From positions 330,770,001-330,834,000 of the forward strand of contig OZ024741.1 of NCBI GenBank assembly GCA_964016885.1: a stretch of 64,000 bases of DNA, written 5' to 3'. Both the position numbers and the translations under genes were made by a program. Each line of letters begins with the position of its first letter. The first letter of the stretch is position 1. The notes under the pieces are model-generated. The model did no database searches. It was given only the letters and a program-made list of their open reading frames with translations, and was not told the DNA's origin. Below, one piece after another: positions 6,848 to 64,000 of this stretch. This DNA comes from Eledone cirrhosa. Lineage: Eukaryota.

Positions 6848-7372
6848 CTGAAATAAGAAGCAAGTAATTTATTTAAGAAAGTCAGTTGTGAGAGATGGTT
6901 AATAACAATAGTCAATATATGTTTACCTGTTCTGGTTTTATTGGATTAAGAAAGTCAGATGAGAAAGATGGTTAATAACAATAGTGAAGACATGTTTACC
7001 TGCCCTGGCTTTTAAATAGTTAAAAGTGGTTTCTAATTTAGGCATGAGGCTAGAAATCGTTGGGGGGCGACAGTCGATTATATCAACCTTCAGTACTACA
7101 ACCAGTATTATTTTATCAACTCTGGAAATACGAGAGGCAAAGTTGACCTCAGTGAGATTTGAACTCAGAACGTAAAGTGCCAGAAATACTGCTAAGCATT
7201 TGTCTGACACTCTAATGATTTTGTCAATCCATCACCCTAAGATGGTTAACAACAACAGCGAAGCTAATATATTTTTACATACTTAAGTGTTAACCTTTTC
7301 ATTACAAAACTGCCTGAAACCACCTCATCCTTTGTTCTATGATACAAGGTTGTTTATTTTTAAATGTTTACA

Positions 7373-8218
7373 TATACCACTATTAGCCGCTAAAGGGTTC
7401 TCCCTAAAAATGAAAGGCAGGTTGTATGATGCCTGCATACGAACAGCAATGTTGCATGGCAGTGAGACCTGGGCATTGTGTGCAGAGGATATACGCAGAC
7501 TAGAGAGGAACGAAGCTTGCATGCTCCGCTGGATGTGTAATAGTAATATACGTGAACGGCAAAGCATAAACGAACTAAGGAAAAAATTAGAAATAAGAGG
7601 GATCAGATGTTGTTTACTCGAGAGAAGGCTACGTTGGTATGGACACGTGATGCGCATGAAAGTCGATAGCTGTATAACAAAGTGCAGGGCAATAAAGATA
7701 GACGGTAGCCACGGAATAGGCAGACCTAGAAAAACCTGGGACGAGCTGATAAACTCCGACCTCACACACTTACACCTCTCCAAGACAATGTCACTGGACC
7801 GAGACCTTTGGCGGTACTCAGTAATAGAGAAGACCCGCCTTACCTAAATACATAGTAAAACCTACTACAGCCAGTAGGCATCTCTAACAAAATACACCCC
7901 GTCCCACCACCCCCACCCCCTTCTATGTAAAGTTATGTTGGTGCCACAACATCCAGGCCGAAACAAATAAGATCGTGTAGGTGTCACGACAAAAAAAACA
8001 CACAGTCCACGCTGTAATGTGGCCGTGTAGGCAACATGGTAAAAACCTCCCAGACCCACACTGTAAATGTGGTTGGTGTTAGGAAGGGCATCCAACTGTA
8101 GAAAGCCTGCCAGACAGTCCTATGCGAGCAAGACAATCACTCTTGCCTCAAGTGGGAATACCCCCGTCCAAACCCATGCAAGCGTGGAACACGGACGTTA
8201 AACGTTGATGATGATGAT
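7373..8218 (+). mobile_element. 5'-truncated RTE-group LINE (subfamily A) with 3'UTR and (GAT)n tail, in a TMEM230 intron
   Basis: ORF ...LHGSETWAL...RRLRWYGHVMRM...GRPRKTW; near-identical to copies at 41.1, 43.9, 45.7 and 55.6 kb. Confidence 0.92.
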
Positions 8219-26265: not shown

Positions 26266-26339
<74 letters not shown>

Positions 26340-26341
<2 letters not shown>

Positions 26342-26582
26342 ATTCGTTTTTTAATTTGTTTTGCGGGATTTCTTATCTGAAAACGTGTATTGAAACATAT
26401 TGTTATACTTTGGTCATGCTGCCAATAAAAACACACGCACCTGTTGGTTTTCACTTCAATTTATTGTAAGTTTCCGGTTGGTTGGTTCGATAACCAGAAG
26501 GTTGTTACACAAAATAAAAACCTACTCACTGAGGAGGTCACAGCATGTGTGACGAAAGAGCTTTGACAATATATAAACAACC
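26340..26582. mobile_element. Penelope-like terminal remnant with a degenerate hammerhead (26526-26566, +)
   Basis: 26340-26505 is a diverged reverse complement of 57480-57687; it is followed by tca-CTGAGGA-ggtcac..gtgac-GAAA-gagctt-tga. Confidence 0.65.
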
Positions 26583-26840
26583 TTTTGGTTATGAGGGAAT
26601 GGAGGTTGCATGGAGCAGGAAGGAACATTTTAGCCTTGAGTGGACAGGACTAACAGACAACTATATATGTAACCATAGAAACCATATCATCTGTCTAATC
26701 TTAATGACAACCCAGCTAACCACATGAAAGCATGGAAAATAGACATAGAACAATGATGGCGTTGATGGTGGTGGGGGTATTGATGATGGTGTTGATGATG
26801 ATGATATATATTTCTTTGTTGTTTTTAGGACAGTGCAGCC

Positions 26841-34454: not shown

Positions 34455-35320
34455 TCATCATCATCATCACTGTTTTACGTCCGTTCTTCCATGCTAGCAT
34501 GGGTTAGATGGGTTGTCCTGTTGTGGGCAGTGTCTGGTCGGCTGACCATGCCTTGCTCATACAGGAACTGATTTTGGCTTGGTTTCTACAGCTGGATGCC
34601 CTTCCTAACACCAACCTCATTTACAGTGAGTGCTGGGTGCTTTTTTTTTCCGTGGCGCCTACACGTCCACTTTACAGTGTGGGCTGGGTGCTTTTTTGCC
34701 GTGGCACCTCCACGACCACTATGCAGTGGGAGGGTGTGGGGGCATATTGTCTATATGCTTCAGCTTGTACCCATGGGAGGTCGAGTACTCTGTATTACTG
34801 CGTGACGCCAGAGGTCACGGTCGTGTGTGTTCGCCTTTGAGAGGTGTAATTGGGTAAGGTCGGCTTTTATCACCTCATCCCAGGTCTTCTTGGGTCTCCC
34901 CACTCCACGGTTTCCATTGACTTCTAGTACTCTGCACCTTTTTATGTAGCTGTCATCCTTCATACGCATCACATGTCCATACCAACGCAACCGCCTCTCC
35001 TGCACACAGCATTTGATTCCTCTTATGCTCAGTCTCTCTCTTAATTCATTTATGCTTTGCCGTTCACGTATATTACTATTACACATCCATCGGAGCATAC
35101 AGGCTTCGTTTCTTTCTAATCTACGTAAATCTTCCACCTTCAGCGCCCAGGTCTCACTACCATGTAACATTGCTGTTCGGGTACACGCATCATACAGTCT
35201 GCCTTTCATTTTGCGGGAGAAGCCTTTTGCAGCTAGCAGTGGCAGTAGCTCCCTGAACTTCTTCCATCCCATTCTTACCCTAGTTATTGTACTTTCTGAA
35301 CACCCACCTCCGCTGCTAAT
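34455..35320 (-). mobile_element. 5'-truncated RTE-group LINE (subfamily B) with (CAT)n tail
   Basis: ORF DRISSGGGCSES...LHGSETWAL...RRLRWYGHVMRM; its 3'UTR differs from subfamily A and is shared with 40655-40870 and 58518-58808. Confidence 0.9.
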
Positions 35321-35494
35321 TCGATCATATATACCTGCTATTGTTATGTAGCTTCTAATTGAATGGAAGCATGGGTGGTGTATTGGTGTAATAACACATT
35401 GGTCCAGCAAACCAAAGATGTGGGTTTGTATCTGATGACGATGGATAAACATCCTTAAATACATACACAGTGCTTTTACATGGGTGCTGAGATC

Positions 35495-36290
35495 ATCATC
35501 ACTGAGGAACTTAAAACTGGTACTCCATGGGAGTTCCTTTATGCTTATGACCTAGTCCTCATATCTGAGTCTGTAGGAAAGTTAGGAACAAAATTTCAAG
35601 CATGGCAGAAGAACCTAGAGCTGAAAGGCCTAAAAGTAAATTTAGCAAAGACGAAAGTCTTAATAAGTAGGAAAGAAGACAGGAAAGTGATCGTGATCGA
35701 TATGTCAGAAAGGGGTGGGTAGAAATTTCATAAGGTGACACAATGTAGAATATGGACGCACAAGAGATGTAGTGGGATTGCAGATAAGCTAACGGAAAAG
35801 AGACTTTTTATGCTCAGGAGAAGTAAGCACAAAGAACACACTTGTAAATAGACTCCCTCGGCTGCCAGGGGAGTTCTTTAGAAGTTATGGACAGCTTCAA
35901 ATTACTAATGTAGGAGGATACACTGAAAGTGTGATAGCTAGGATAACAGGCTAGAAGAAATTTAGAGATTTATAAGCATTACTAACAACAAAATGCTTTT
36001 CTCTCAAAGTGAAGGGTAGACTGTATGATGCCTGTGTACCAACCACAATGTTACATGGCAGTGAAACATGGGCCTTGACTACAGAAGACTTGCAGAGGCT
36101 AGAAAGAAATGAGTTGAGTATGCTCCGATGGATGTGCAATGTTAGTGTGCATGAGCGACATAGCATAAGCAAACTCAGGGAACAACTTAGCATAAGAGGA
36201 ATTGGATGTAGTGAGCAAGAGAGAAGCCTGCATTGGTATGGCCATGTGATGCGCATGGAAGATGGCAGCTGCCTAAAGAAATGTTGGTGA
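35495..36290 (+). mobile_element. Old, frameshifted RTE-group LINE fragment
   Basis: ITEELKTGTPWEFLYAYDLVLI (decayed YADD) ... LHGSETWALTTEDLQRLERNE ... WYGHVMRM. Confidence 0.85.
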
Positions 36291-41112: not shown

Positions 41113-43332
41113 CATCATCATCATCATCAACGTTTAACGTCCGTGTTCCACGCTTGCATGGGTTTGGACGGGGGTAGTCCCACTTGAGGCAAGAGTGATT
41201 GTCTTGCTCGCATAGGACTGTCTGGCAGGTTTTCTACAGTTGGATGCCCTTCCTAACACCAACCACATTTACAGTGTGGGTCTGGGAGGTTTTTACCATG
41301 TTGCCTACACGGCCACATTACAGCGTGGACTGTGTGTTTTTTTGTCGTGACACCTACACGATCTCATTTGTTTCGGCCTCGATGGCGCGGCACCAACATA
41401 ACTTTACATAGAACGGGGTGGTGTGGATGGGGTGGGGGTGGTGGTGGTGGGACGGGGTGTATTTTGTTAGAGATGCCTACTGGCTGGAGTAGGTTTTACT
41501 ATATATTTAGGTAAGGCGGGTCTTCTCTGTTACTGAGTACCGCCAAAGGTCTCGGTCCAGTGACATTGTCTTGGAGAGGTATAAGTGTGTGATGTCGGAG
41601 TTTATCAGCTCGTCCCAGGTTTTTCTAGGTCTGCCTATTCCGTGACTACCGTCTATCTTTATTGCCCTGCACTTTGTTATACAGCTATCGACTTTCATGC
41701 GCATCACGTGTCCATACCAACGTAGCCTTCTCTCGAGTAAACAGCATCTGATCCCTCTTATCTCTAATTTTTTCCTTAGTTCGTTTATGCTTTGCCGTTC
41801 ACGTATATTACTGTTACACATCCAGCGGAGCATGCAAGCTTCGTTCCTCTCTAGTCTGCGTATATCCTCTGCACACAATGCCTAGGTCTCACTGCCATGC
41901 AGCATTGCTGTTCGTATGCAGGCATCGTACAACCTGCCTTTCATTTTTAGGGAGAACCCTTTAGCAGCTAATAGTGGTATAAGCTCTCTGAACTTTTTCC
42001 AACCAGTTCTGACTCTAGCTACGGTACTTTCAGAGCACCCTCCCCCACTGCTGATTTTATCGCCCAGGTAACAGAAGCTGTCCACTATTTCTATAGAACC
42101 CTCTGCGCAATTGAAAGAGCTAGTATTTTGTGGGCACTTGCTGCTACTTATTGCACCAGAACACCGGCCACATGTAAAATCTATGTTCTTAGTTAGCTTA
42201 CCTGTGATCCCACTACATCTTTTATGCACCCATACTTTGCATTTAGGACATAAAATGGAGTTTCTACCTACGCCTTTCCTACACACCGAGCACGACCATT
42301 TCCCAGAAGGGACCGCCGCCTTGTTTTCTTTCCTACAAACTAGTACTTTGGTCTTAGCCAGGTTAATTTTAAGTCCTTTTGACTCTAGGCCGTGCTTCCA
42401 TGTTTGGAATTTCTTCTCTAGCTCGGCCATTGATTCCGCTATGAGTTTCAGGTCGTCTGCGTATAGGAGTTCCCATGGGCAGCCTGTCTTGAACTCCTCT
42501 GTTATAGCCTGAAGGGCAATAATAAATAGTAGGGGGCTGAGAACAGAGCCCTGATGGACGCCAACTTTTACGCTAAACTCTTCACTATATTCGTTGTTAA
42601 TTCTAACCTTGCTGACTGTTTCTTTATACATGGCTTGTATAGCTCTCACAAGCCATTCGTCAACGCCTAGTTTTCTAAGAGCCCACCAGATAATGGAGCG
42701 GGGGACTCTGTCGAAGGCTTTCTCCAAGTCGACAAAAGCTAAGTAGAGGGGTTTACCTTTAGCTAGGTACTTCTCCTGTAGTTGTCGTACTATGAAAAGA
42801 GCGTCTGTGGTACTTTTGCCTGACACAAACCCGAACTGCATTTCATCTAGGTCAATTCTCTCTCTGATTAGTTGCGCTATTACTTTTTCCGTGACCTTCA
42901 TGACCTGGTCGATTAATTTAATGCCTCTATAGTTACTCCTATCTAGGGCGTCTCCTTTACCCTTATAACAGTTAACGATGATGCTGCTATGCCAGTCCTT
43001 CGGAACAACCCCATTCTGTACGACTTGGTTAACTATGCGGGTGACCATGGTGTGTCCCACCGTGCCAGATGCCTTCAGCATCTCAGCAACTATTTCCGAA
43101 GGCCCAGCCGCCTTACCCGTCTTCATATCCTTGATTGCCTTACTTATTATACTCCCCTCGACTAACACTGCTGGTCCCTCTATCGGGTCGATATGGGGGA
43201 GACTGTCTTTCTCCCATTTATTCTCCTCATTTAGTAGCCTTTCATAGTGACATTTCCAAGCTACCTTCTTATCAGCGTCGGTGATGGCAAGTGTGCCATC
43301 ATCGTTTAGTACACACTTCTCCCCGACAATAT
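41111..43332 (-). mobile_element. Longest RTE-group LINE copy (2.2 kb, 5'-truncated): RT with PHD-like insertion and one nonsense codon
   Basis: RT motifs NYRGIKL, QFGF, FVDLEKAFDRV, GVHQGSVLSPLLF, YADD; TGG>TAG at 41882-41884 splits ORFs 41882-43168 and 41507-41878; (CAT)n tail at 41111. Confidence 0.95.
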
Positions 43333-43614
43333 CTTCTCCTTCTTATAAATTCCTTAATTCTTAATCTAGCGTATTTTCAAACCTCAATCCCTAATTCTAG
43401 CGTATTTTCAAAACAAAAAACAAAATCCTTTCCTTCTTCCTTCTTTCGAAACTCCCGCTTACTCGACCCCCCCCCCCCCCCCACCCACCCGCTACTTCGA
43501 AGGCATGGCGGTCAAACGCCTAACACACACAACCATCATGCGGCCACCCCCCTCTCTCTCTCTCTCTCTATATATATATGATAGGAATTCACTTCGCCAA
43601 ATTTCATTGCTTTG

Positions 43615-45719: not shown

Positions 45720-47334
45720 ATATAAAGAAACAGTCAGCAAGGTTAGAATTAACAACGAATATAGTGAAGAGTTTAGCGTAAAAGTTGGTGTCCATCAGGG
45801 CTCTGTTCTTAGCCCCTACTATTTATTATTGCCCTTCAGGCTATAACAGAGGAGTTCAAGACCGGCTGCCCATGGGAACTCCTATACACAGATGATCTAA
45901 CGCTCATAGCTGAATCAATGACCGAGCTAGAGAAGAAATTCCAAACATGGAAGCACGGCCTAGAATCAAAAGGCCTTAAAATTAACCTGGCTAAGACTAA
46001 AGTTCTAGTTTGTAGGAAAGAAAATAAGGCGACGGTCCCTTCCGGGAAATGGCCATGCTCAGTGTGTAGGAAAGGCGTAGGTAGAAACTCCATTTTATGT
46101 CCCAAATGCAAAGTATGGGTGCATAAAAGATGTAGTGGGATCATAGGTAAGCTAACTAAGAACATAGATTTTACATGTGGCCGGTGCTCTAGTGCAATAA
46201 GTAGCAGCACGTGCCCACAAAATACTAGCTCTTTCAATTGTGCAGAGGGTTCTATAGAAATAGTGGACAGCTTCCGTTACCTGGGTGACAAAATCAGCAG
46301 TGGGGGAGGGTGCTCTGAAAGTACAGTAGCTAGAGTCAGAACTGGTTGGAAAAAGTTCAGAGAGCTTATACCACTATTAGCCGCTAAAGGGTTCTCCCTA
46401 AGAATGAAAGGCAGGTTGTATGATGCCTGCATACGAACAGCAATGTTGCATGGCAGTGAGACCTGGGCATTGTGTGCAGAGGATATACGCAGACTAGAGA
46501 GGAACGAAGCTTGCATGCTCCGCTGGATGTGTAATAGTAACATACGTGAACAGCAAAGCATAAGCGAACTAAGGAAAAAATTAGAAATAAGAGGGATCAG
46601 GTGTTGTTTACTCGAGAGAAGGCTACGTTGGTATGGTCACGTGATGTGCATGAAAGACGACAGCTGTATAACAAAGTGCAGCGCAATAAAGATAGACGGT
46701 AGCTACGGAGTAGGCAGACCCAGAAAAACCTGGGACGAGCTGATAAATTCTGACCTCACACACTTACACCTCACCAAGACAATGTCACTGGACCGAGACC
46801 TTTGGCGGTACTCAGTAATAGAGAAGACCCGCCTTACCTAAATACAAAGTAAAACCTACTACAGCCAGTAGGCATCTCTAACAAAATACCCCCCCCCCCC
46901 CACACACACACACCCCCCATCCACACCGCCCCTTCAATGTAAAGTTATGTTGATCCAGGCCGAAACAAATGAGATCGTGTAGGTGTCACGACAAAAAAAC
47001 ACACAGTCCACGCTGACATGTGGCCGTGTAGGCAACACGGTAAAAACCTCCCAGCCCCACACTGTAAATGTGGTTGGTGTTAGGAAGGGCATCCAGCTGT
47101 AGAAAACCTGCCAGACAGTCCACGCTGTAATGTGGCCGTGTAGGCAACACGGTAAAAACCTCCCAGCCCGACACTGTAAATGTGGTTGGTGTTAGGAAGG
47201 GCATCCAGCTCTAGAAAACCCGCCAGACAGTCCTATGCGAGCAAGACAATCACTCTTGCCTCAAGTGGGAAAACCCCCGTCCAAACCCATGCAAGCGTGG
47301 AACACGGACGTTAAACGTTGATGATGATGATGAT
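45720..47334 (+). mobile_element. 5'-truncated RTE-group LINE (subfamily A) with an internally duplicated 3'UTR segment
   Basis: 307-aa ORF 45918-46841; ~110-bp tandem duplication at 47005-47232; (GAT)n tail; (TA)n on both sides. Confidence 0.93.
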
Positions 47335-48562: not shown

Positions 48563-48641
<79 letters not shown>

Positions 48642-48673
48642 AGATCAAAAGATGGTTAAAGGAGTTCCATATA

Positions 48674-48740
48674 TTTTATTATGCGCATTTCAAAAACAAA
48701 CATCATCAAGCAATAATATTTGTGTTTTCATCAGATAAAA
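48674..48740 (-). ncRNA. Type I hammerhead ribozyme motif (Penelope terminal repeat)
   Basis: Mirror copy of 51540-51606. Confidence 0.75.
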
Positions 48741-50327
48741 CAGGAGAACATGATATGAAGGCTAAAAAACACTTGTTGATAGTGCAGTTTTAAATCAACA
48801 TATGAAAAGTGGTTTTAGATTGATGTGTGATATTGGGAAAAATATTTTATTTAGAGAGGGGGGGGAAGGATGAGAAGGGAAGGAGATGAGAGGGAGAGAT
48901 GGGTGATAGAGAGAAAGAGATAGTTTTTATAACTGAGAGGAGATATATTTTTTATATAGAGGGGTTGAAAACCGTTGGAAGATACTGTATAAATTAAAAA
49001 TTTTGAAAATTAACGAAGGGGGGATATGTGCGAGGAAAAAATATTTTATTTAGGGAGGAGGGTGGAAAGGATGAAAAAAAAAGGGGGAGGAGATGAGAGT
49101 GAAGGTGGAGAGGGAGAGATGGGTGATAGAGAGAAAGAGATAGTTTTTATAACTGAGAAAAAGATATATTGTTTTAATATAGAGAGGTTGGGAACCGTTG
49201 GAAGATAATGTATAAATTAAAGGAATTTAAAAATTAACGAAGGGAAATTATGTATGAAGATAGAGAGAAAAAAAAAAAAAAATAATAATAATTGTGGGTG
49301 AATATTCTAACGTCAAAAGAAGAAATGTATGTATTGTGGCAATTTCAAAATTAGCAAAGAGAGAAATGTTAAGGTTTATGTGTAGAAGGATTTGAGAAAA
49401 ATAATGTGAAGTTAAAGTTTGTATATTGAATTCATATGTATTAATAATGAGTTCGTTGATGGGGAGAAAAAAATAATAATAAATTAAGGATGAAATTGAG
49501 ATTAAAAAGATTTATGATAGAGAGAAAAAATAATAATGATTGCGGATGAATATTCAAAATGTCAAAAACAAATGTTATTGTTTTACGAGAAGATAGAATG
49601 AGGGTAATGAGTAAACGAGTATTATAGAGTGTATAATGCCCTTTAAAGTAAGGTAGATGGGTATATTTTAAAGAGGTGTATGTATATGTGCCTTTGAGAA
49701 AAGATTCTAAATTGATAAAGAATTGAATATTAACTGTATACTTTGTGAAAAGTTCTATGGAATTTATGCAGGCAGATAGAAAACAAATCTGAGCGTCTAT
49801 TTATTATGGATTCTAGGTTAGAGATAATGGTAAATTTTTCATTTAGGCAGAGATTACAGATTTTAGATAGAGAGCTGTTCAAGTATGAGGATGCAGAAGA
49901 AATCTTTTTCCAAAAGATGCTATATTTAATGTTTTTGTCTTTTAAGGACCATATGAGTTCTGAGAGAGCAGTGTTAGTTCTTTTAAGTTTGTATTTGAAA
50001 GATGAATGATGATTATAGAGACGAGCTTTAAAAGAGGTGGAAGTGGAGCCAAAATAGGTGAACTCGTTTACTCATTACCCTCATTCTATCTTCTCGTAAA
50101 ACAATAACATTTGTTTTTGACATTTTGAATATTCATCCGCAATCATTATTATTTTTTCTCTCTATCATAAATCTTTTTAATCTCAATTTCATCCTTAATT
50201 TATTATTATTTTTTTCTCCCCATCAACGAACTCATTATTAATACATATGAATTCAATATACAAACTTTAACTTCACATTATTTTTCTCAAATCCTAAATT
50301 GATTCTAAATTGATAAAGAATTGAATA

Positions 50328-50660
50328 TTAACTGTATACTTTGTGAAAAGTTCTATGGAATTTATGCAGGCAGATAGAAAACAAATCTGAGCGTCTATTT
50401 ATTATGGATTCTAGGTTAGAGATAATGGTAAATTTTTCATTTAGGCAGAGATTACAGATTTTAGATAGAGAGCTGTTCAAGTATGAGGATGCAGAAGAAA
50501 TCTTTTTCCAAAAGATGCTATATTTAATGTTTTTGTCTTTTAAGGACCATATGAGTTCTGAGAGAGCAGTGTTAGTTCTTTTAAGTTTGTATTTGAAAGA
50601 TGAATGATGATTATAGAGACGAGCTTTAAAAGAGGTGGAAGTGGAGCCCAAATAGGTGAA
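50328..50660 (-). pseudogene. GIY-YIG endonuclease C-terminal fragment of a Penelope-like element (second copy 49730-50062)
   Basis: YLGSTSTSFKARLYNHHSSF...TALSELIWSLK...CNLCLNEKFTII...NRRSDLFSICLH: YIG-like motif, catalytic R, E and N, and a Cys/His cluster. Confidence 0.8.
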
Positions 50661-51539
50661 CTCGTTTACTCATTACCCTCATTCTATCTTCTCGTAAAAC
50701 AATAACATTTGTTTTTGACATTTTGAATATTCATCCGCAATCATTATTATTTTTTCTCTCTATCATAAATCTTTTTAATCTCAATTTCATCCTTAATTTA
50801 TTATTATTTTTTTCTCCCCATCAACGAACTCATTATTAATACATATGAATTCAATATACAAACTTCAACTTCACATTATTTTTCTCAAATCCTTCTACAC
50901 ATAAACCTTAACATTTCTCTCTTTGCTAATTTTGAAATTGCCACAATACATACATTTCTTCTTTTGACGTTAGAATATTCACCCACAATTATTATTTTTT
51001 TTTTTTTCTCTCTATCTTCATACATAATTTCCCTTCGTTAATTTTTAAATTCCTTTAATTTATACATTATCTTCCAACGGTTCCCAACCTCTCTATATTA
51101 AAACAATATATCTTTTTCTCAGTTATAAAAACTATCTCTTTCTCTCTATCACCCATCTCTCCCTCTCCACCTTCACTCTCATCTCCTCCCCCTTTTTTTT
51201 TCATCCTTTCCACCCCCCCTCCCTAAATAAAATATTTTTTCCTCGCACATATCCCCCCTTCGTTAATTTTCAAAATTTTTAATTTATACAGTATCTTCCA
51301 ACGGTTTTCAACCCCTCTATATAAAAAATATATCTCCTCTCAGTTATAAAAACTATCTCTTTCTCTCTATCACCCATCTCTCCCTCTCATCTCCTTCCCT
51401 TCTCATCCTTTCCCCCCCCCCCTCTCTAAATAAAATATTTTTCCCAATATCACACATCAATCTAAAACCACTTTTCATATGTTGATTTAAAACTGCACTA
51501 TCAACAAGTGTTTTTTAGCCTTCATATCATGTTCTCCTG

Positions 51540-51606
51540 TTTTATCTGATGAAAACACAAATATTATTGCTTGATGATGTTTGTTTTTGAAATGCGCATA
51601 ATAAAA
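51540..51606 (+). ncRNA. Type I hammerhead ribozyme motif (Penelope terminal repeat)
   Basis: ttttat-CTGATGA-aaac...gttttt-GAAA-tgcgca-TA^-ataaaa; palindromic stem III (AUGCGCAU); predicted cleavage after 51600. Confidence 0.78.
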
Positions 51607-51732
51607 TATATGGAACTCCTTTAACCATCTTTTGATCTTATATTATGCATACTCCAGTCCCACAAACTGTAGAGTGCTTCTTATCCGATATCTGCATTGC
51701 TTTATTGTACTACAATAAAACTCACCTCCTAC

Positions 51733-53994: not shown

Positions 53995-55090
<1,096 letters not shown>

Positions 55091-55623
55091 GGTGTAAGTG
55101 CACTAAATCCCTTTCTATCAATCTCCCCTCTCCTACCGACCACAGGGAGATATATGTATGTATATTGCTCCACCTCCTCACTGACCAGCAGCTGGCCATC
55201 TGGCCATTGCTAAATCTGACCTTTATAAAATAACCCACACCCCCAAATAACTTCTCATTCACTACCAGAAAGGCACACAGCAGTCAACTAGCTGCTACCA
55301 AGATGAAAACTACTATGAAATCCCACAATGAATTTTATACTTGAATTTTCAAATCTCAAATTTTAACTCTTCTTATTATTAATTTTTCTTAATATTAATC
55401 AACATTTGAAAAGATGGCTTTTACAGACCCATCGAAACCGGTCATTTTTTATACCCTTTATTATTTCCTTACCTTATAAAATTATATGTTTTTTCACAAA
55501 AAAGTATTCTGTCTCTTATATATTCCATGTGCCATTACCAACCTCAATTTTCTCTATAATCTTCGTTTTGTGTAGTAAATTACACTTTTCATATATTTAT
55601 ATATATATATATTTATATATATA

Positions 55624-56200
55624 TATGAAAGTCGATAGCTGTATAACAAAGTGCAGGGCAATAAAGATAGACGGTAGCCACGGAATAGGCAGACCTAGAA
55701 AAACCTGGGACGAGCTGATAAACTCCGACCTCACACACTTACACCTCTCCAAGACAATGTCACTGGACCGAGACCTTTGGCGGTACTCAGTAACAGAGAA
55801 GACCCGCCTTACCTAAATACATAGTAAAACCTACTACAGCCAGTAGGCATCTCTAACAAAATACACCCTGTCCCACCACCCCCCACCCCATCCACACCAC
55901 CCCCTTCTATGTAAAGTTATGTTGGTGCCACGCCATCCAGGCCGAAACAAATGAGATCGTGTAGGTGTCACGACAAAAAAACACACAGTCCACGCTGTAA
56001 TGTGGCCGTGTAGGCAACACGGTAAAAACCTCCCAGACCCACACTGTAAATGTGGTTGGTGTTAGGAAGGGCATCCAACTGTAGAAAACCTGCCAGACAG
56101 TCCTATGCGAGCAAGACAATCACTCTTGCCTCAAGTGGGAATACCCCCGTCCAAACCCATGCAAGCGTGGAACACAGACGTTAAACGTTGATGATGATGA
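55624..56200 (+). mobile_element. Short 5'-truncated RTE-group LINE (subfamily A)
   Basis: MKVDSCITKCRAIKIDGSHGIGRPRKTW..., 3'UTR and (GAT)n tail; inside (TA)n. Confidence 0.92.
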
Positions 56201-56202
56201 TT

Positions 56203-56237
<35 letters not shown>

Positions 56238-56240
56238 ATT

Positions 56241-56277
<37 letters not shown>

Positions 56278-56290
56278 ATTTATATATATA

Positions 56291-57685
56291 TTTTGTTATA
56301 CTTTGGGAGGGTCATGTTGCCAATAAGAAAAACACGCACCAGTTGCTTTCACTTCAATTTATTATATATTTATAAATTTATAAATTTACAAATCTACAAA
56401 TCTATAAATTTCTGGTTGGTTGGTTGGTTCCACAACCAGATAGTTGTTTATATATAGTCATAGTCCTTTCGTCACGCACTCTGTGACCTCTTCAGTGACT
56501 GGGGATTCCTTTCTTTGTTTCTGTGCCTTTCCTTTCTTCTGTCCTACGCCATTTTGTTTCTGTGTGTGTGTTGTGTGCTCAGTTTGCGCATGCGCCACAT
56601 CCGGGTGTCTGTGTGTGTTTGTGTTCATTTATCTATTTGTTTATTTATTTACATGTTGTTGGTTGGTTGTTTGTTCTATGTGTGTGTGTGTTTTCATTTT
56701 GTCCTTAATTGTAAGTTGTGATGTTGCTGTTCCACTCATCTTTTCTATTTAATTTTGGTTGTAATTCTTTTATGCTTACTGCCTCTGTAATTTGCCTAAA
56801 CATTGCATCTTTTCTGTGTGTGGATTCTATTTTTATTTCTATGTTCTCTAATTTACCCTTGTGTTCTATCTTAGCATGTTGGTAGAGTACAGATGATTCT
56901 TTATTATCTTGAAGGTCTCGCCAGTGTTCATTTATGGAACGGATAAATGAACACTGGCGAGACCTTCAAGATAATAAAGAATCATCTGTACTCTACCAAC
57001 ATGCTAAGATAGAACACAAGGGTAAATTAGAGAACATAGAAATAAAAATAGAATCCACACACAGAAAAGATGCAATGTTTAGGCAAATTACAGAGGCAGT
57101 AAGCATAAAAGAATTACAACCAAAATTAAATAGAAAATATGAATTACAACCAAATAAAAGAATTACAACCAAAATTAAATAGAAAAGATGAGTGGAACAG
57201 CAACATCACAACTTACAATTAAGGACAAAATGAAAACACACACACACATAGAACAAACAACCAACCAACAACATGTAAATAAATAAACAAATAGATAAAT
57301 GAACACAAACACACACAGACACCCGGATGTGGCGCATGCGCAAACTGAGCATACAACACACACACAGAAACAAAATGGCGTAGGACAGAAGAAAGGAAAG
57401 GCACAGAAACAAAGAAAGGAATCCCCAGTCACTGAAGAGGTCACAGAGTGTGTGACGAAAGGACTATGACTATATATAAACAACTATCTGGTTGTGGAAC
57501 CAACCAACCAACCAGAAATTTATAGATTTGTAGATTTGTAAATTTATAAATATATAATAAATTGAAGTGAAAGCAACTGGTGCGTGTGTTTCTTATTGGC
57601 AACATGACCCTCCCAAAGTATAACAATATCGGTTTCAACACACGATTTCAGATAAAGAATCTTGCTAAACAAATTCAGAAACGAA

Positions 57686-57687
<2 letters not shown>
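56291..57687 (+). mobile_element. Second Penelope-like element forming a ~1.3-kb palindrome centred at ~56939
   Basis: 56292-56933 is the reverse complement of 56944-57625; ORF ERINEHWRD...SVLYQHAKIEH...RQITEAVSIKELQPKLNR is a GIY-YIG C-terminus; hammerheads in both arms. Confidence 0.85.
57427..57471 (+). ncRNA. Minimal hammerhead ribozyme motif (mirror copy 56456-56500, -)
   Basis: agtca-CTGAAGA-ggtcac agagtgt gtgac-GAAA-ggac-TA^-tgact. Confidence 0.68.
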
Positions 57688-57717
<30 letters not shown>

Positions 57718-58033
57718 ATTTATATATATATATATTTATATATATATATATTTATATATATATATATTTATATATATATATTTATATATATATTTATATA
57801 TATATATTTATGCTTTCATATATTTTTCTATCTGTATATCTGTTTGACCCGAAATAGGAGATCGAATCTTCGCTGTGTGGATAATTAGTTTAACCACCAT
57901 CTAAGTGTGTTTGGCCTTTAACGTAAGTTGTAAGCTCTAATTCTTTTGAATTATTGAGCGCTTGCCTCACAATTCGAAAGTGTTTTTTCGTTATTTCATA
58001 GGCTGAAATTCGATTCTCGCTAATTTTTACTTG

Positions 58034-58066
<33 letters not shown>

Positions 58067-58180
58067 TTATATATATATATATTTATATATATATAAATAT
58101 ACAGATACCTCAGGCACAGAAAGTGATTATCGCTAAATGCTGATGTTGGTTAGATTATCAATATTAGTATTATTGGAGCA

Positions 58181-58307
58181 CCCACTGATGAATTATAGGA
58201 GCCCACTTGAATATATATCTATTGATGGTATACAAGCTCCTACATAAATTGGTATAATTTCACCCAAATTGTAGGAATCCTATATTGAAACGAGACGTCC
58301 GTCTGGG
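58181..58307 (+). ncRNA. Hammerhead ribozyme motif with an unusually long stem II insert
   Basis: ccca-CTGATGA-attatagga...(~75 nt)...tcctatatt-GAAA-cg agacgtc c-GTC^-tggg. Confidence 0.6.
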
Positions 58308-58517
58308 AAGAGATATATTAGATATGTCTCATTTGAAATAATACAGCCAATTTTCCACGCAATACTTTTAGTTAGCACCCCGAACACATAATTGGGAATA
58401 TAATCACTTAATTCCTAATGTTTGTTGAGTGAGTTGGAATTTGACCGGAGTATCGCTAAAAAGCTTTCTCCGATATTGTATTTATTATATATATATTTAT
58501 ATATAATAAATACAATA

Positions 58518-58808
58518 TGCCCCCCCCCCCCCACCGCAAGGTGGTCGTGGAGGTGCCACGGCAAAAAAGCACCCAGCCCACACTGTAAAGTGGACGTGTA
58601 GGCGCCACGAAAAAGCACCCAGCACTCACTGTAAATGAGGTTGGTGTTAGGAAGGGCATCCAGCTGTAGAAATCAAGCCAGATCAGTTCCTGTATGAGCA
58701 AGGCATGGTCAGCCGACCAGACACTGCCCACAACAGGACAACCCGTCTAACCCATGCTAGCGTGGAAGAACGGACGTAAAACGGTGATGATGATGATGAT
58801 GATGATGA
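58518..58808 (+). mobile_element. RTE-group LINE (subfamily B) 3'UTR with (GAT)n tail
   Basis: Reverse complement of 34455-34745; abuts the tandem array. Confidence 0.88.
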
Positions 58809-59132
58809 TATTTAGTTGAAAAAAAAAATGAAAACGGAATTTCATTTCTCACTCTTAGTATGGCACTTACTTAAATGTAAGTATGTATGTATACGTACAT
58901 ACATATATGTATACAGACGTACAGTAGCATGCATATATATATACATATACATATATATATATATATATATATACATATATACACATATGCATACAGGTAC
59001 ACATACATATATGCACGCATCAGTTTAGCCTACGTTTATTATAACGCCGGCCGCTTTGTTCGTTTGTTTGTCAACAAAGCGAACAGCCTGAATTTATGCC
59101 ATACGGTGTTAAGGCAACCACGTCACCTTTTT

Positions 59133-59219
59133 GTTCAACACTGACACAGGAACGATGTACTAGTTTCAAGCTTGTTAGCTATCATCAGCACCGTTTACCC
59201 ATCTGCCAGATAGTTGAAC
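59133..59219 (-). ncRNA. Type I hammerhead ribozyme with extended stem I (unit 1; the same motif is in all 10 full units)
   Basis: Minus strand: guucaac..cuggc..ggg ua aacggug-CUGAUGA-u agcu aaca agcu u-GAAA-cua-GUA^-caucguu ccu..gucag u guugaac; core at 59182-59188 and 59164-59167; predicted cleavage between 59158 and 59157. Confidence 0.82.
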
Positions 59220-59268
59220 GTTCGAAAGTATATACTTTCCTTATGAAAATTAACGGCTGAGCAGCCTA

Positions 59269-59276
59269 ATTTGCAT
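59269..59276. promoter_or_regulatory. Octamer motif ATTTGCAT/ATGCAAAT in every array unit
   Basis: Exact POU/Oct-1 octamer ~80 nt upstream of the hammerhead core on the minus strand. Confidence 0.5.
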
Positions 59277-59447
59277 ATTGAGTGAGTTAAATCGGTCAGG
59301 CATACCGAAAACGATTAGTTGAAAAAAAAAATGAAAACGGAATTTCATTTCTCACTCTTAGTATGGCACTTACTTAAATGTAAGTATGTATGTATACGTA
59401 CATACATATATGTATACAGACGTACAGTAGCATGCATATATATATAC

Positions 59448-59484
<37 letters not shown>

Positions 59485-59953
59485 TACACATATGCATACA
59501 GGTACACATACATATATGCACGCATCAGTTTAGCCTACGTTTATTATAACGCCGGCCGCTTTGTTCGTTTGTTTGTCAACAAAGCGAACAGCCTGAATTT
59601 ATGCCATACGGTGTTAAGGCAACCACGTCACCTTTTTGTTCAACACTGACACAGGAACGATGTACTAGTTTCAAGCTTGTTAGCTATCATCAGCACCGTT
59701 TACCCATCTGCCAGATAGTTGAACGTTCGAAAGTATATACTTTCCTTATGAAAATTAACGGCTGAGCAGCCTAATTTGCATATTGAGTGAGTTAAATCGG
59801 TCAGGCATACCGAAAACGATTAGTTGAAAAAAAAAAATGAAAACGGAATTTCATTTCTCACTCTTAGTATGGCACTTACTTAAATGTAAGTATGTATGTA
59901 TACGTACATACATATATGTATACAGACGTACAGTAGCATGCATATATATATAC

Positions 59954-59990
<37 letters not shown>

Positions 59991-60957
59991 TACACATATG
60001 CATACAGGTACACATACATATATGCACGCATCAGTTTAGCCTACGTTTATTATAACGCCGGCCACTTTGTTCGTTTGTTTGTCAACAAAGCGAACAGCCT
60101 GAATTTATGCCATACGGTGTTAAGGCAACCACGTCACCTTTTTGTTCAACACTGACACAGGAACGATGTACTAGTTTCAAGCTTGTTAGCTATCATCAGC
60201 ACCGTTTACCCATCTGCCAGATAGTTGAACGTTCGAAAGTATATACTTTCCTTATGAAAATTAACGGCTGAGCAGCCTAATTTGCATATTGAGTGAGTTA
60301 AATCGGTCAGGCATACCGAAAACGATTAGTTGAAAAAAAAAATGAAAACGGAATTTCATTTCTCACTCTTAGTATGGCACTTACTTAAATGTAAGTATGT
60401 ATGTATACGTACATACATATATGTATACAGACGTACAGTAGCATGCATATATATATACATATACATATATATATATATATATACATATATACACATATGC
60501 ATACAGGTACACATACATATATGCACGCATCAGTTTAGCCTACGTTTATTATAACGCCGGCCGCTTTGTTCGTTTGTTTGTCAACAAAGCGAACAGCCTG
60601 AATTTATGCCATACGGTGTTAAGGCAACCACGTCACCTTTTTGTTCAACACTGACACAGGAACGATGTACTAGTTTCAAGCTTGTTAGCTATCATCAGCA
60701 CCGTTTACCCATCTGCCAGATAGTTGAACGTTCGAAAGTATATACTTTCCTTATGAAAATTAACGGCTGAGCAGCCTAATTTGCATATTGAGTGAGTTAA
60801 ATCGGTCAGGCATACCGAAAACGATTAGTTGAAAAAAAAAATGAAAACGGAATTTCATTTCTCACTCTTAGTATGGCACTTACTTAAATGTAAGTATGTA
60901 TGTATACGTACATACATATATGTATACAGACGTACAGTAGCATGCATATATATATAC

Positions 60958-60994
<37 letters not shown>

Positions 60995-61462
60995 TACACA
61001 TATGCATACAGGTACACATATATATATGCACGCATCAGTTTAGCCTACGTTTATTATAACGCCGGCCGCTTTGTTCGTTTGTTTGTCAACAAAGCGAACA
61101 GCCTGAATTTATGCCATACGGTGTTAAGGCAACCACGTCACCTTTTTGTTCAACACTGACACAGGAACGATGTACTAGTTTCAAGCTTGTTAGCTATCAT
61201 CAGCACCGTTTACCCATCTGCCAGATAGTTGAACGTTCGAAAGTATATACTTTCCTTATGATAATTAACGGCTGAGCAGCCTAATTTGCATATTGAGTGA
61301 GTTAAATCGGTCAGGCATACCGAAAACGATTAGTTGAAAAAAAAAATGAAAACGGAATTTCATTTCTCACTCTTAGTATGGCACTTACTTAAATGTAAGT
61401 ATGTATGTATACGTACATACATATATGTATACAGACGTACAGTAGCATGCATATATATATAC

Positions 61463-61501
<39 letters not shown>

Positions 61502-61970
61502 TACACATATGCATACAGGTACACATACATATATGCACGCATCAGTTTAGCCTACGTTTATTATAACGCCGGCCGCTTTGTTCGTTTGTTTGTCAACAAA
61601 GCGAACAGCCTGAATTTATGCCATACGGTGTTAAGGCAACCACGTCACCTTTTTGTTCAACACTGACACAGGAACGATGTACTAGTTTCAAGCTTGTTAG
61701 CTATCATCAGCACCGTTTACCCATCTGCCAGATAGTTGAACGTTCGAAAGTATATACTTTCCTTATGAAAATTAACGGCTGAGCAGCCTAATTTGCATAT
61801 TGAGTGAGTTAAATCGGTCAGGCATACCGAAAACGATTAGTTGAAAAAAAAAAATGAAAACGGAATTTCATTTCTCACTCTTAGTATGGCACTTACTTAA
61901 ATGTAAGTATGTATGTATACGTACATACATATATGTATACAGACGTACAGTAGCATGCATATATATATAC

Positions 61971-62011
<41 letters not shown>

Positions 62012-62979
62012 TACACATATGCATACAGGTACACATACATATATGCACGCATCAGTTTAGCCTACGTTTATTATAACGCCGGCCACTTTGTTCGTTTGTT
62101 TGTCAACAAAGCGAACAGCCTGAATTTATGCCATACGGTGTTAAGGCAACCACGTCACCTTTTTGTTCAACACTGACACAGGAACGATGTACTAGTTTCA
62201 AGCTTGTTAGCTATCATCAGCACCGTTTACCCATCTGCCAGATAGTTGAACGTTCGAAAGTATATACTTTCCTTATGAAAATTAACGGCTGAGCAGCCTA
62301 ATTTGCATATTGAGTGAGTTAAATCGGTCAGGCATACCGAAAACGATTAGTTGAAAAAAAAAATGAAAACGGAATTTCATTTCTCACTCTTAGTATGGCA
62401 CTTACTTAAATGTAAGTATGTATGTATACGTACATACATATATGTATACAGACGTACAGTAGCATGCATATATATATACATATACATATATATATATATA
62501 TATACATATATACACATATGCATACAGGTACACATACATATATGCACGCATCAGTTTAGCCTACGTTTATTATAACGCCGGCCGCTTTGTTCGTTTGTTT
62601 GTCAACAAAGCGAACAGCCTGAATTTATGCCATACGGTGTTAAGGCAACCACGTCACCTTTTTGTTCAACACTGACACAGGAACGATGTACTAGTTTCAA
62701 GCTTGTTAGCTATCATCAGCACCGTTTACCCATCTGCCAGATAGTTGAACGTTCGAAAGTATATACTTTCCTTATGAAAATTAACGGCTGAGCAGCCTAA
62801 TTTGCATATTGAGTGAGTTAAATCGGTCAGGCATACCGAAAACGATTAGTTGAAAAAAAAAAATGAAAACGGAATTTCATTTCTCACTCTTAGTATGGCA
62901 CTTACTTAAATGTAAGTATGTATGTATACGTACATACATATATGTATACAGACGTACAGTAGCATGCATATATATATAC

Positions 62980-63016
<37 letters not shown>

Positions 63017-64000
63017 TACACATATGCATACAGGTACACATACATATATGCACGCATCAGTTTAGCCTACGTTTATTATAACGCCGGCCGCTTTGTTCGT
63101 TTGTTTGTCAACAAAGCGAACAGCCTGAATTTATGCCATACGGTGTTAAGGCAACCACGTCACCTTTTTGTTCAACACTGACACAGGAACGATGTACTAG
63201 TTTCAAGCTTGTTAGCTATCATCAGCACCGTTTACCCATCTGCCAGATAGTTGAACGTTCGAAAGTATATACTTTCCTTATGAAAATTAACGGCTGAGCA
63301 GCCTAATTTGCATATTGAGTGAGTTAAATCGGTCAGGCATACCGAAAACGATTAGTTGAAAAAAAAAATGAAAACGGAATTTCATTTCTCACTCTTAGTA
63401 TGGCACTTACTTAAATGTAAGTATGTATGTATACGTACATACATATATGTATACAGACGTACAGTAGCATGCATATATATATACATATACATATATATAT
63501 ATATATATACATATATATACATATGCATACAGGTACACATACATATATGCACGCATCAGTTTAGCCTACGTTTATTATAACGCCGGCCGCTTTGTTCGTT
63601 TGTTTGTCAACAAAGCGAACAGCCTGAATTTATGCCATACGGTGTTAAGGCAACCACGTCACCTTTTTGTTCAACACTGACACAGGAACGATGTACTAGT
63701 TTCAAGCTTGTTAGCTATCATCAGCACCGTTTACCCATCTGCCAGATAGTTGAACGTTCGAAAGTATATACTTTCCTTATGAAAATTAACGGCTGAGCAG
63801 CCTAATTTGCATATTGAGTGAGTTAAATCGGTCAGGCATACCGAAAACGATTAGTTGAAAAAAAAAATGAAAACGGAATTTCATTTCTCACTCTTAGTAT
63901 GGCACTTACTTAAATGTAAGTATGTATGTATACGTACATACATATATGTATACAGACGTACAGTAGCATGCATATATATATACATATACATATATATATA

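Follow-up and report, generated by a model that had tools for sequence, protein, structure and literature searches.

In the 64,000-nucleotide stretch of Eledone cirrhosa DNA analysed here (contig OZ024741.1, positions 330,770,001–330,834,000, forward strand; hereafter the window), the tandem array of ~503-bp units that runs into the right-hand edge probably belongs to a non-autonomous Penelope-like retroelement (PLE) family of the metazoan non-LTR (long terminal repeat) retrozyme class, copied by a scheme that uses multimeric or circular templates. The original prediction, made from the letters of this stretch alone, had described a hammerhead satellite and candidate retrozyme; the retrozyme part is supported, and what was missed is that the array represents a single insertion within a mobile family that is dispersed in the genome and has ends of PLE type. 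Judged from those ends, it is very probable that the element is mobilised by PLEs. Mobilisation of animal retrozymes by PLEs has so far been argued from co-occurrence and from similarity of pseudo-LTRs (pLTRs); here the insertion scars match PLE chemistry. On sequence grounds, the repeat would count as a retrozyme by every test but one, the 10.1–11.1 pair of its hammerhead, for which there is published precedent. The class is already known, and the repeat is a new member of it, not a new kind of system. No published account of the family was found in the literature searched, which lay outside subscription journals, Repbase and Dfam, so that a prior entry in a repeat library is possible. The repeat would also form a large hammerhead-bearing family, one easily misannotated as a simple satellite.

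Insertion anatomy and dispersal of the family

Tandem Repeats Finder reported a single array at 58812–64000 with 10.3 copies and 98% matches, and unit comparison resolved 10 full units of 499–510 bp each plus a 150-bp partial unit, which bears out the at least 10 near-identical ~503-bp units first proposed. The start then placed at 58811 is corrected to 58812, and the array, tandem up to 64000 as had been claimed, does not end there and continues past the window. Its main parts are as follows.

58812..64000, minus strand: left arm of a two-armed retrozyme insertion, with 10 full units and 150 bp inside the window
58812, 59315, 59820, 60326, 60825, 61330, 61837, 62347, 62846, 63352, 63851, array on minus strand: unit starts
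58813..58871, minus strand: 59-nt tail between two alternative 3' ends; the arm ends at the tail end, 58812/58813
58872..59015, minus strand: TA-rich tract of variable length that folds into long hairpins; 58872 corresponds to the short 3' end of the opposite arm

The units differ from one another chiefly in the length of the TA tract and of A-runs, and at 4 substitution sites outside those tracts. The array is non-coding, no open reading frame (ORF) of at least 170 aa having been found in it, and its GC content of 35% lies below the 50% limit for retrozymes. The tail holds one hairpin and a U10 run at 58819–58828. Directly adjoining the left end of the array is a repeat resembling a short interspersed element (~58513–58809) that ends in (TGA)8; the same repeat also adjoins another insertion, in locus L073.

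Past the window, the array reaches 19.2 units (C2:330838487) and then inverts head-to-head into an arm of 2.5 units ending at C2:330839748. The outer ends of this insertion lie at unit positions 1–2 and ~61 and both are 3' ends of the hammerhead strand, that is, two alternative 3' ends ~59 nt apart, one per arm. The same arrangement was found in a scan of 41 regions (one four-ended locus was left out, and 9 of 62 rows, being internal or unresolved, were not counted), in which all 14 simple two-arm loci with both ends called had one tail end and one short end. A 468-bp sister family, with ends ~70 nt apart, followed this rule in 13 of 13 insertions. By eye, 49 of 53 true ends adjoin TA runs; the four exceptions include the left end of the window array, which comes after the (TGA)8 tract. 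Hallmarks of PLEs are copies that are inverted and truncated, a tail that may or may not be present and a bias towards (TA)n (PMC8557442). A PLE protein studied in vitro cleaves AT-rich DNA on both strands and initiates reverse transcription from two internal positions, which delimit the tail (PMC11167929). The arms of the present family are likewise inverted and 5'-truncated. Their 5' ends are scattered over 83 junctions, with no pile-up at the cut site or the predicted transcription start (3 of 83 at −37 to −51), and the arms repeatedly read through cut sites, which points to a circle or an uncut multimer as the template. At several junctions (L071 5500–5570, L073 3930–4020 and L016 near 1920), short stretches of target or template sequence are found duplicated or inverted, which suggests template jumps during insertion.

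Exact-core matches in the 3.0-Gb genome number 12,478 with U7 and 16,090 with another base at N7 (1 and 9, respectively, for reversed controls), the two patterns being disjoint and the counts pooling all subfamilies; the matches listed are singles and short arrays. The copy-number check that had been suggested thus gives, by exact-core pattern, tens of thousands of dispersed copies. Units measure 464–541 bp in the window family, 424 and 430 bp in sister subfamilies and 466–468 bp in the distant 468-bp family. For contigs of four runs of unrecorded kind, X1, X6, X5 and X4, the counts were 4,583, 26, 1 and 0, respectively; variants are visible among them, they are uninformative on transcription, and X1 may be the source material. 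Within a locus, units of both arms are near-identical, as at locus C6, where 13 identical units show 0 substitutions in 78 pairs, compared with a mean of 9.2 substitutions between loci; since the C6 unit equals the window's subfamily, such identity is no proof that only one template was used. Units alternate with a period of two at C10 and repeat every four at C3, and these patterns, together with recurring variants in the window array, point to multimeric templates or DNA-level duplication. Young copies, as at C6, and nested subfamilies provide material on circle templating, on the origin of the PLE tail and inverted arm, and on array transcription.

Predicted hammerhead: structure, folding and conservation

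As had been claimed, the minus strand carries a complete hammerhead core in every full unit; it is of type I (CUGANGA, GAAA and UH, with helices I–III), with the same motif in 10 of 10.

59158..59188, minus strand: hammerhead core of unit 1, with C3 at 59188, U10.1 at 59181, stem II at 59180–59169 and U11.1 at 59168; its 3' part comprises palindromic stem III (59164–59159), A17 (59158) and the predicted cut, 59158/59157
59133..59219, minus strand: extended helix I around the unit-1 core, with a 7-bp stem (59195–59189/59157–59151), a UA bulge and three further helices
59663..63724, minus strand: cores of units 2–10, with C3 at 59693, 60199, 60698, 61203, 61710, 62220, 62719, 63225 and 63724 and each predicted cut 30 nt on from C3

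The 7-bp stem I, UA bulge, three extensions, AGCU-AACA-AGCU stem II and ACUAGU stem III described earlier are all present, the cleavage position predicted here coincides with that given then (59158/59157), and the four hairpins proposed for the rest of the unit can all be seen in the predicted monomer fold. At the sites of a putative tertiary contact between loop I and loop II, the UA bulge and the AA of loop II are invariant in 10 of 10 rows, and the last loop A in 9 of 10. In place of the canonical R10.1–Y11.1 pair the window family has U.U, a caveat already attached to the original prediction. The mismatch is real but a weak objection: axolotl HHR_Amex2 has U.U at the base of helix II, yet 22% was cleaved in an hour as a monomer, and more as a dimer (PMC7229834), and the 468-bp sister family has G10.1–C11.1 in most copies. 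U.U at this position also recurs in other hammerhead families of the E. cirrhosa genome; at least six further families were seen in loci L059, L071, L044, L055, L053 and L063, several with U.U at the stem II base and a palindromic stem III. The geometry resembles Rfam HH9, and the Rfam check proposed beforehand returned a minus-strand HH9 match for the window array, though at 18.5 bits (E 0.049) this falls below the cut-off of 52, as does the 37.7 bits (E 1.5e-8) of the 468-bp family. MicroRNA matches in the scan of 54000–64000, in which 150 of 257 matches were listed, were set aside as TA-driven noise.

Folding energies were computed with a model that leaves tertiary contacts outside. Without the TA tract, the minus strand folds with z −5.2 compared with −2.4 for the plus strand (60 shuffles), and the monomer circle, at −178.9 kcal/mol, is predicted to be highly self-paired. 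In a two-unit transcript, the nested double hammerhead (−210.0 kcal/mol) lies 4.4 kcal/mol above the free energy minimum (−214.4) and 10.8 below two single hammerheads (−199.2). Metazoan type I motifs are described as having, as a rule, a short palindromic helix III and as acting in dimeric form (PMC4209133). Covariation, folding energies and published precedent (PMC7229834, PMC4209133) support both the retrozyme assignment and the dimer-acting hammerhead put forward earlier, and the models make it likely that two neighbouring hammerheads would cleave as a dimer. In the monomer fold, the predicted extended helix I juxtaposes the two ends of the cut monomer, an arrangement that suits ligation; RtcB ligated other retrozymes.

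A search anchored in the flanks, outside the core, returned 21,976 copies, and variants were tallied by eye in the first 100. Common variants were limited to N7, one loop II base and pair 2.3/1.3, the latter being G.U in 40 copies, U.G in 47, A-U in 9, U-A in 1 and U.U in 3, and hence paired in 97 of 100. Around 22 copies had rarer changes, several of them inside the core, as expected from decay after insertion. In three subfamilies, 2 of 31 core columns vary compared with 95 of 389 ungapped columns elsewhere; these units were picked by core pattern, which makes the invariance partly circular, whereas the flank-anchored test is non-circular. Covariation, a check suggested at the outset for related species, was examined across families of this genome with the 468-bp family included: 9 of 22 hammerhead pairs change on both sides, 91.8% of cells in the cross-family alignment are paired compared with 32–48% in slid controls, and the covariation score was reached by 0 of 500 shuffles, a result that loses weight in that it covers ~3 lineages and the shuffle control ignores relatedness. 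The families are only ~64–78% alike in alignable blocks, yet core positions and helices are kept. At locus L218 (C10:47398000-47404900), of the 468-bp family, a linked variant turns G10.1–C11.1 into A.C in every second unit, over units 2–8, a pattern that a dimeric template containing one weak ribozyme could have produced.

Putative promoter, PLE partner and rival explanations

Each unit may also carry its own promoter, for which there are two candidate elements.

59266..59277, minus strand: octamer-containing 12-mer TATGCAAATTAG, a putative promoter element that matches an element in three U6 genes
59229..59234, minus strand: TATA-like box, 43 nt after the 12-mer start

From the TATA-like box, transcription would be expected to start near 59199–59204, just 5' of the hammerhead and its stem I. 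The 12-mer sits in one of two blocks conserved with the distant 468-bp family and occurs 2 times in 603,904 bases of background. Three unlinked U6 loci of this genome, with TATA at −30, carry it at −77 to −79; it is absent from 11 other U6 copies (probably pseudogenes; 3 of 14 unreadable) and from 8 U1/U2 upstream regions (loci compared: L176-L178, L186, L188, L210-L213, L216 and L217). A matrix from the three U6 sequences ranks the site first in 3 of 4 families (13.4, 13.4 and 16.7, with a background 99th percentile of 12.9 in 387 windows), while the 424-bp family scores only 6.5, and spacing from 12-mer to TATA is 43–44 nt in the retrozyme versus 47–49 in U6. For an RNA polymerase II (Pol II) promoter of the small nuclear RNA (snRNA) type, a U1/U2 matrix gave the candidate site no support. 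The U6 genes here have their octamer-like element close in, at −78, and the U1/U2 genes a TCAGT element at ~−57 plus a TATA-like box. Pol III should terminate at the U10 run in the tail, short of the mapped tail end, and on its own could therefore not supply multimeric templates. From its likeness to the U6 elements, the motif may act as a promoter, with the balance tipping slightly against it.

Autonomous PLEs are present in the same genome, with many copies of a 784-aa open frame for reverse transcriptase (RT) and GIY-YIG endonuclease. The abundant family with this frame, which its linker cysteine motif would label Neptune-like, shares the twin-end arrangement, with 40 nt between the ends, at (TA)n. 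At locus L051 (6798-8162 and 3362-5713), a 455-aa upstream frame overlaps the 784-aa RT/endonuclease frame in a different phase. Among the 120 homologues listed, out of 735, for the PLE protein, no cephalopod name appeared. A head-to-head junction 3 kb past the array and a shared terminal AACTA suggested this family as the partner, which was not confirmed: both ends of the composite at that junction are tail ends, and different families are found at other junctions.

Several results weigh against a PLE-mobilised retrozyme. Among the four PLE families sampled, none was autonomous with a homologous pLTR; no hammerhead core was found in the pLTR of the Neptune-like family, whose 3' end aligns with the retrozyme no better than shuffles do (84 versus 100), and only 4 of 113 arm junctions directly adjoin PLE coding sequence, which comes from three different families. 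As to the ribozyme, the window subfamily joins U.U at 10.1–11.1 with a 1-bp stem III, and pairing between the core CUG and the UAG of stem III gives an inactive misfold that lies 7.8 kcal/mol below the active fold of a single motif. In vitro, cleavage was seen for only 1 of 9 dimers of Xenopus retrozymes (bioRxiv 10.64898/2026.07.22.740005), and PLE insertion did not require hammerhead cleavage (PMC11167929). Periodicities of two and four units do not fit the copying of one monomer circle alone.

Some of these observations speak for a non-autonomous PLE whose only templates would be uncut linear multimers made by read-through, with a hammerhead retained as a fold, or cutting seldom or only with protein assistance, and with no stable circles. 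To this belong the misfold favoured for the single motif, the 8 of 9 Xenopus dimers that failed to cut, the higher-order periodicities, which fit multimer templates, and the Poseidon hammerhead mutants, which still insert, the ribozyme having cut only with protein present (PMC11167929). Such an element is unlikely here, given that core and helices are held across families ~64–78% alike in alignable blocks and that similar repeats from coral, mussel and axolotl cleave and build up as circles (PMC7229834). The repeated variant patterns within arrays suggest DNA-level duplication, as would fit an ordinary DNA satellite spread and expanded by DNA mechanisms, with a relic hammerhead from an old pLTR; dispersal in short arrays, paired ends at fixed positions, inversion together with 5' truncations at scattered points, TA targeting and RNA-level covariation largely refute this explanation and leave it highly improbable. 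Least credible is a domesticated, host-serving cluster of non-coding RNA genes with a U6-type promoter, which might be suggested by the U6-like 12-mer, accompanied by a TATA-like box, of 3 out of the 4 families, set against tens of thousands of dispersed copies, many of them young and truncated, subfamily turnover and a window locus that shows no sign of being special.

For the PLE-mobilised retrozyme that we prefer, the following scheme can be proposed. The minus strand would be transcribed as multimers, in which adjacent hammerheads would form a 6-bp stem III between their palindromic ACUAGU segments and excise ~500-nt monomers, to be circularised by a host RtcB-type ligase. A PLE RT/GIY-YIG protein, supplied in trans, would nick both strands at a TA-rich site, and cDNA would start internally, one strand yielding the tail end and the other the short end. 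Copying round the circle or along an uncut multimer and stopping at scattered points would then produce head-to-head arrays, probably followed by later DNA-level array expansion. We lean slightly towards expecting ~500-nt circles in vivo. A bolder version, which we offer tentatively and think rather doubtful, is a self-contained circular-RNA retroelement with a captured U6-type promoter in each unit, directly in front of a dimer-gated hammerhead, and a PLE RT rolling round monomeric or multimeric circles from two fixed start sites, each belonging to one nicked strand. If this were true, rolling-circle reverse transcription would have left a direct record of itself in the genome, in the form of tens of thousands of insertions, and the strict rule of one tail end and one short end would constrain the mechanism of PLE integration.

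The window, which is largely made up of repeats, contains other PLE-type insertions. At 56290–57690, a separate one consists of two inverted 5'-truncated arms (GIY-YIG C-terminus and pLTR) with a different hammerhead at 56495 (minus strand) and 57432 (plus strand), a short end on the left, a 60-nt tail on the right and (TA)n flanks; a further pLTR copy lies near 26338–26593. A second inverted pair, at ~48600–51700, has endonuclease fragments at 49748–50657 and hammerhead-like cores at 48734 (minus strand) and 51546 (plus strand), and explains the GC-skew flip at 48–52 kb. Fragments of an RT family of long interspersed element type, labelled from reading translations, occur at 430–966, 7287–7847, 34760–35551, 41882–43342 and 45813–46841.

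Comparison with known systems

The present family resembles the non-LTR retrozymes of coral, mussel and axolotl (PMC7229834) and the vertebrate families of bioRxiv 10.64898/2026.07.22.740005 in its tandem non-coding units with one type I hammerhead each, and also in its GC content below 50%, highly paired predicted circle and co-occurring PLEs. Its unit length falls inside the 51–972 bp range of the vertebrate families, and the window unit is longer than the 170–400 nt circles tested for known retrozymes. The window family unites a weak stem III like that of HHR_Amex1 with the U.U of HHR_Amex2, and no description of such a signature of inverted arms and twin ends in retrozymes was found in the sections of these sources that were consulted.

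With PLEs and their non-autonomous derivatives (PMC8557442, PMC11167929, PMC4209133), the family shares an inverted 5'-truncated copy at the 5' end, an optional tail at one end, the (TA)n bias and a hammerhead upstream of the RT start sites. It differs from PLEs in having no ORF, a tail of 55–70 nt instead of 30–40, and a hammerhead of canonical type where PLEs have a minimal one.

Newt satellite 2, Schistosoma Sm-alpha and Dolichopoda pDo500 are likewise hammerhead satellites, and the pDo500 unit is ~500 bp long, like the present repeat (PMC2837043). In giant squid, 235 Rfam hammerhead matches have been recorded (PMC6962438). PMC2220036 cites internal promoters, of the snRNA type (Pol II) and for Pol III, in the newt and schistosome repeats. 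The present 12-mer resembles the U6 upstream element of its own genome, not the U1/U2 element.

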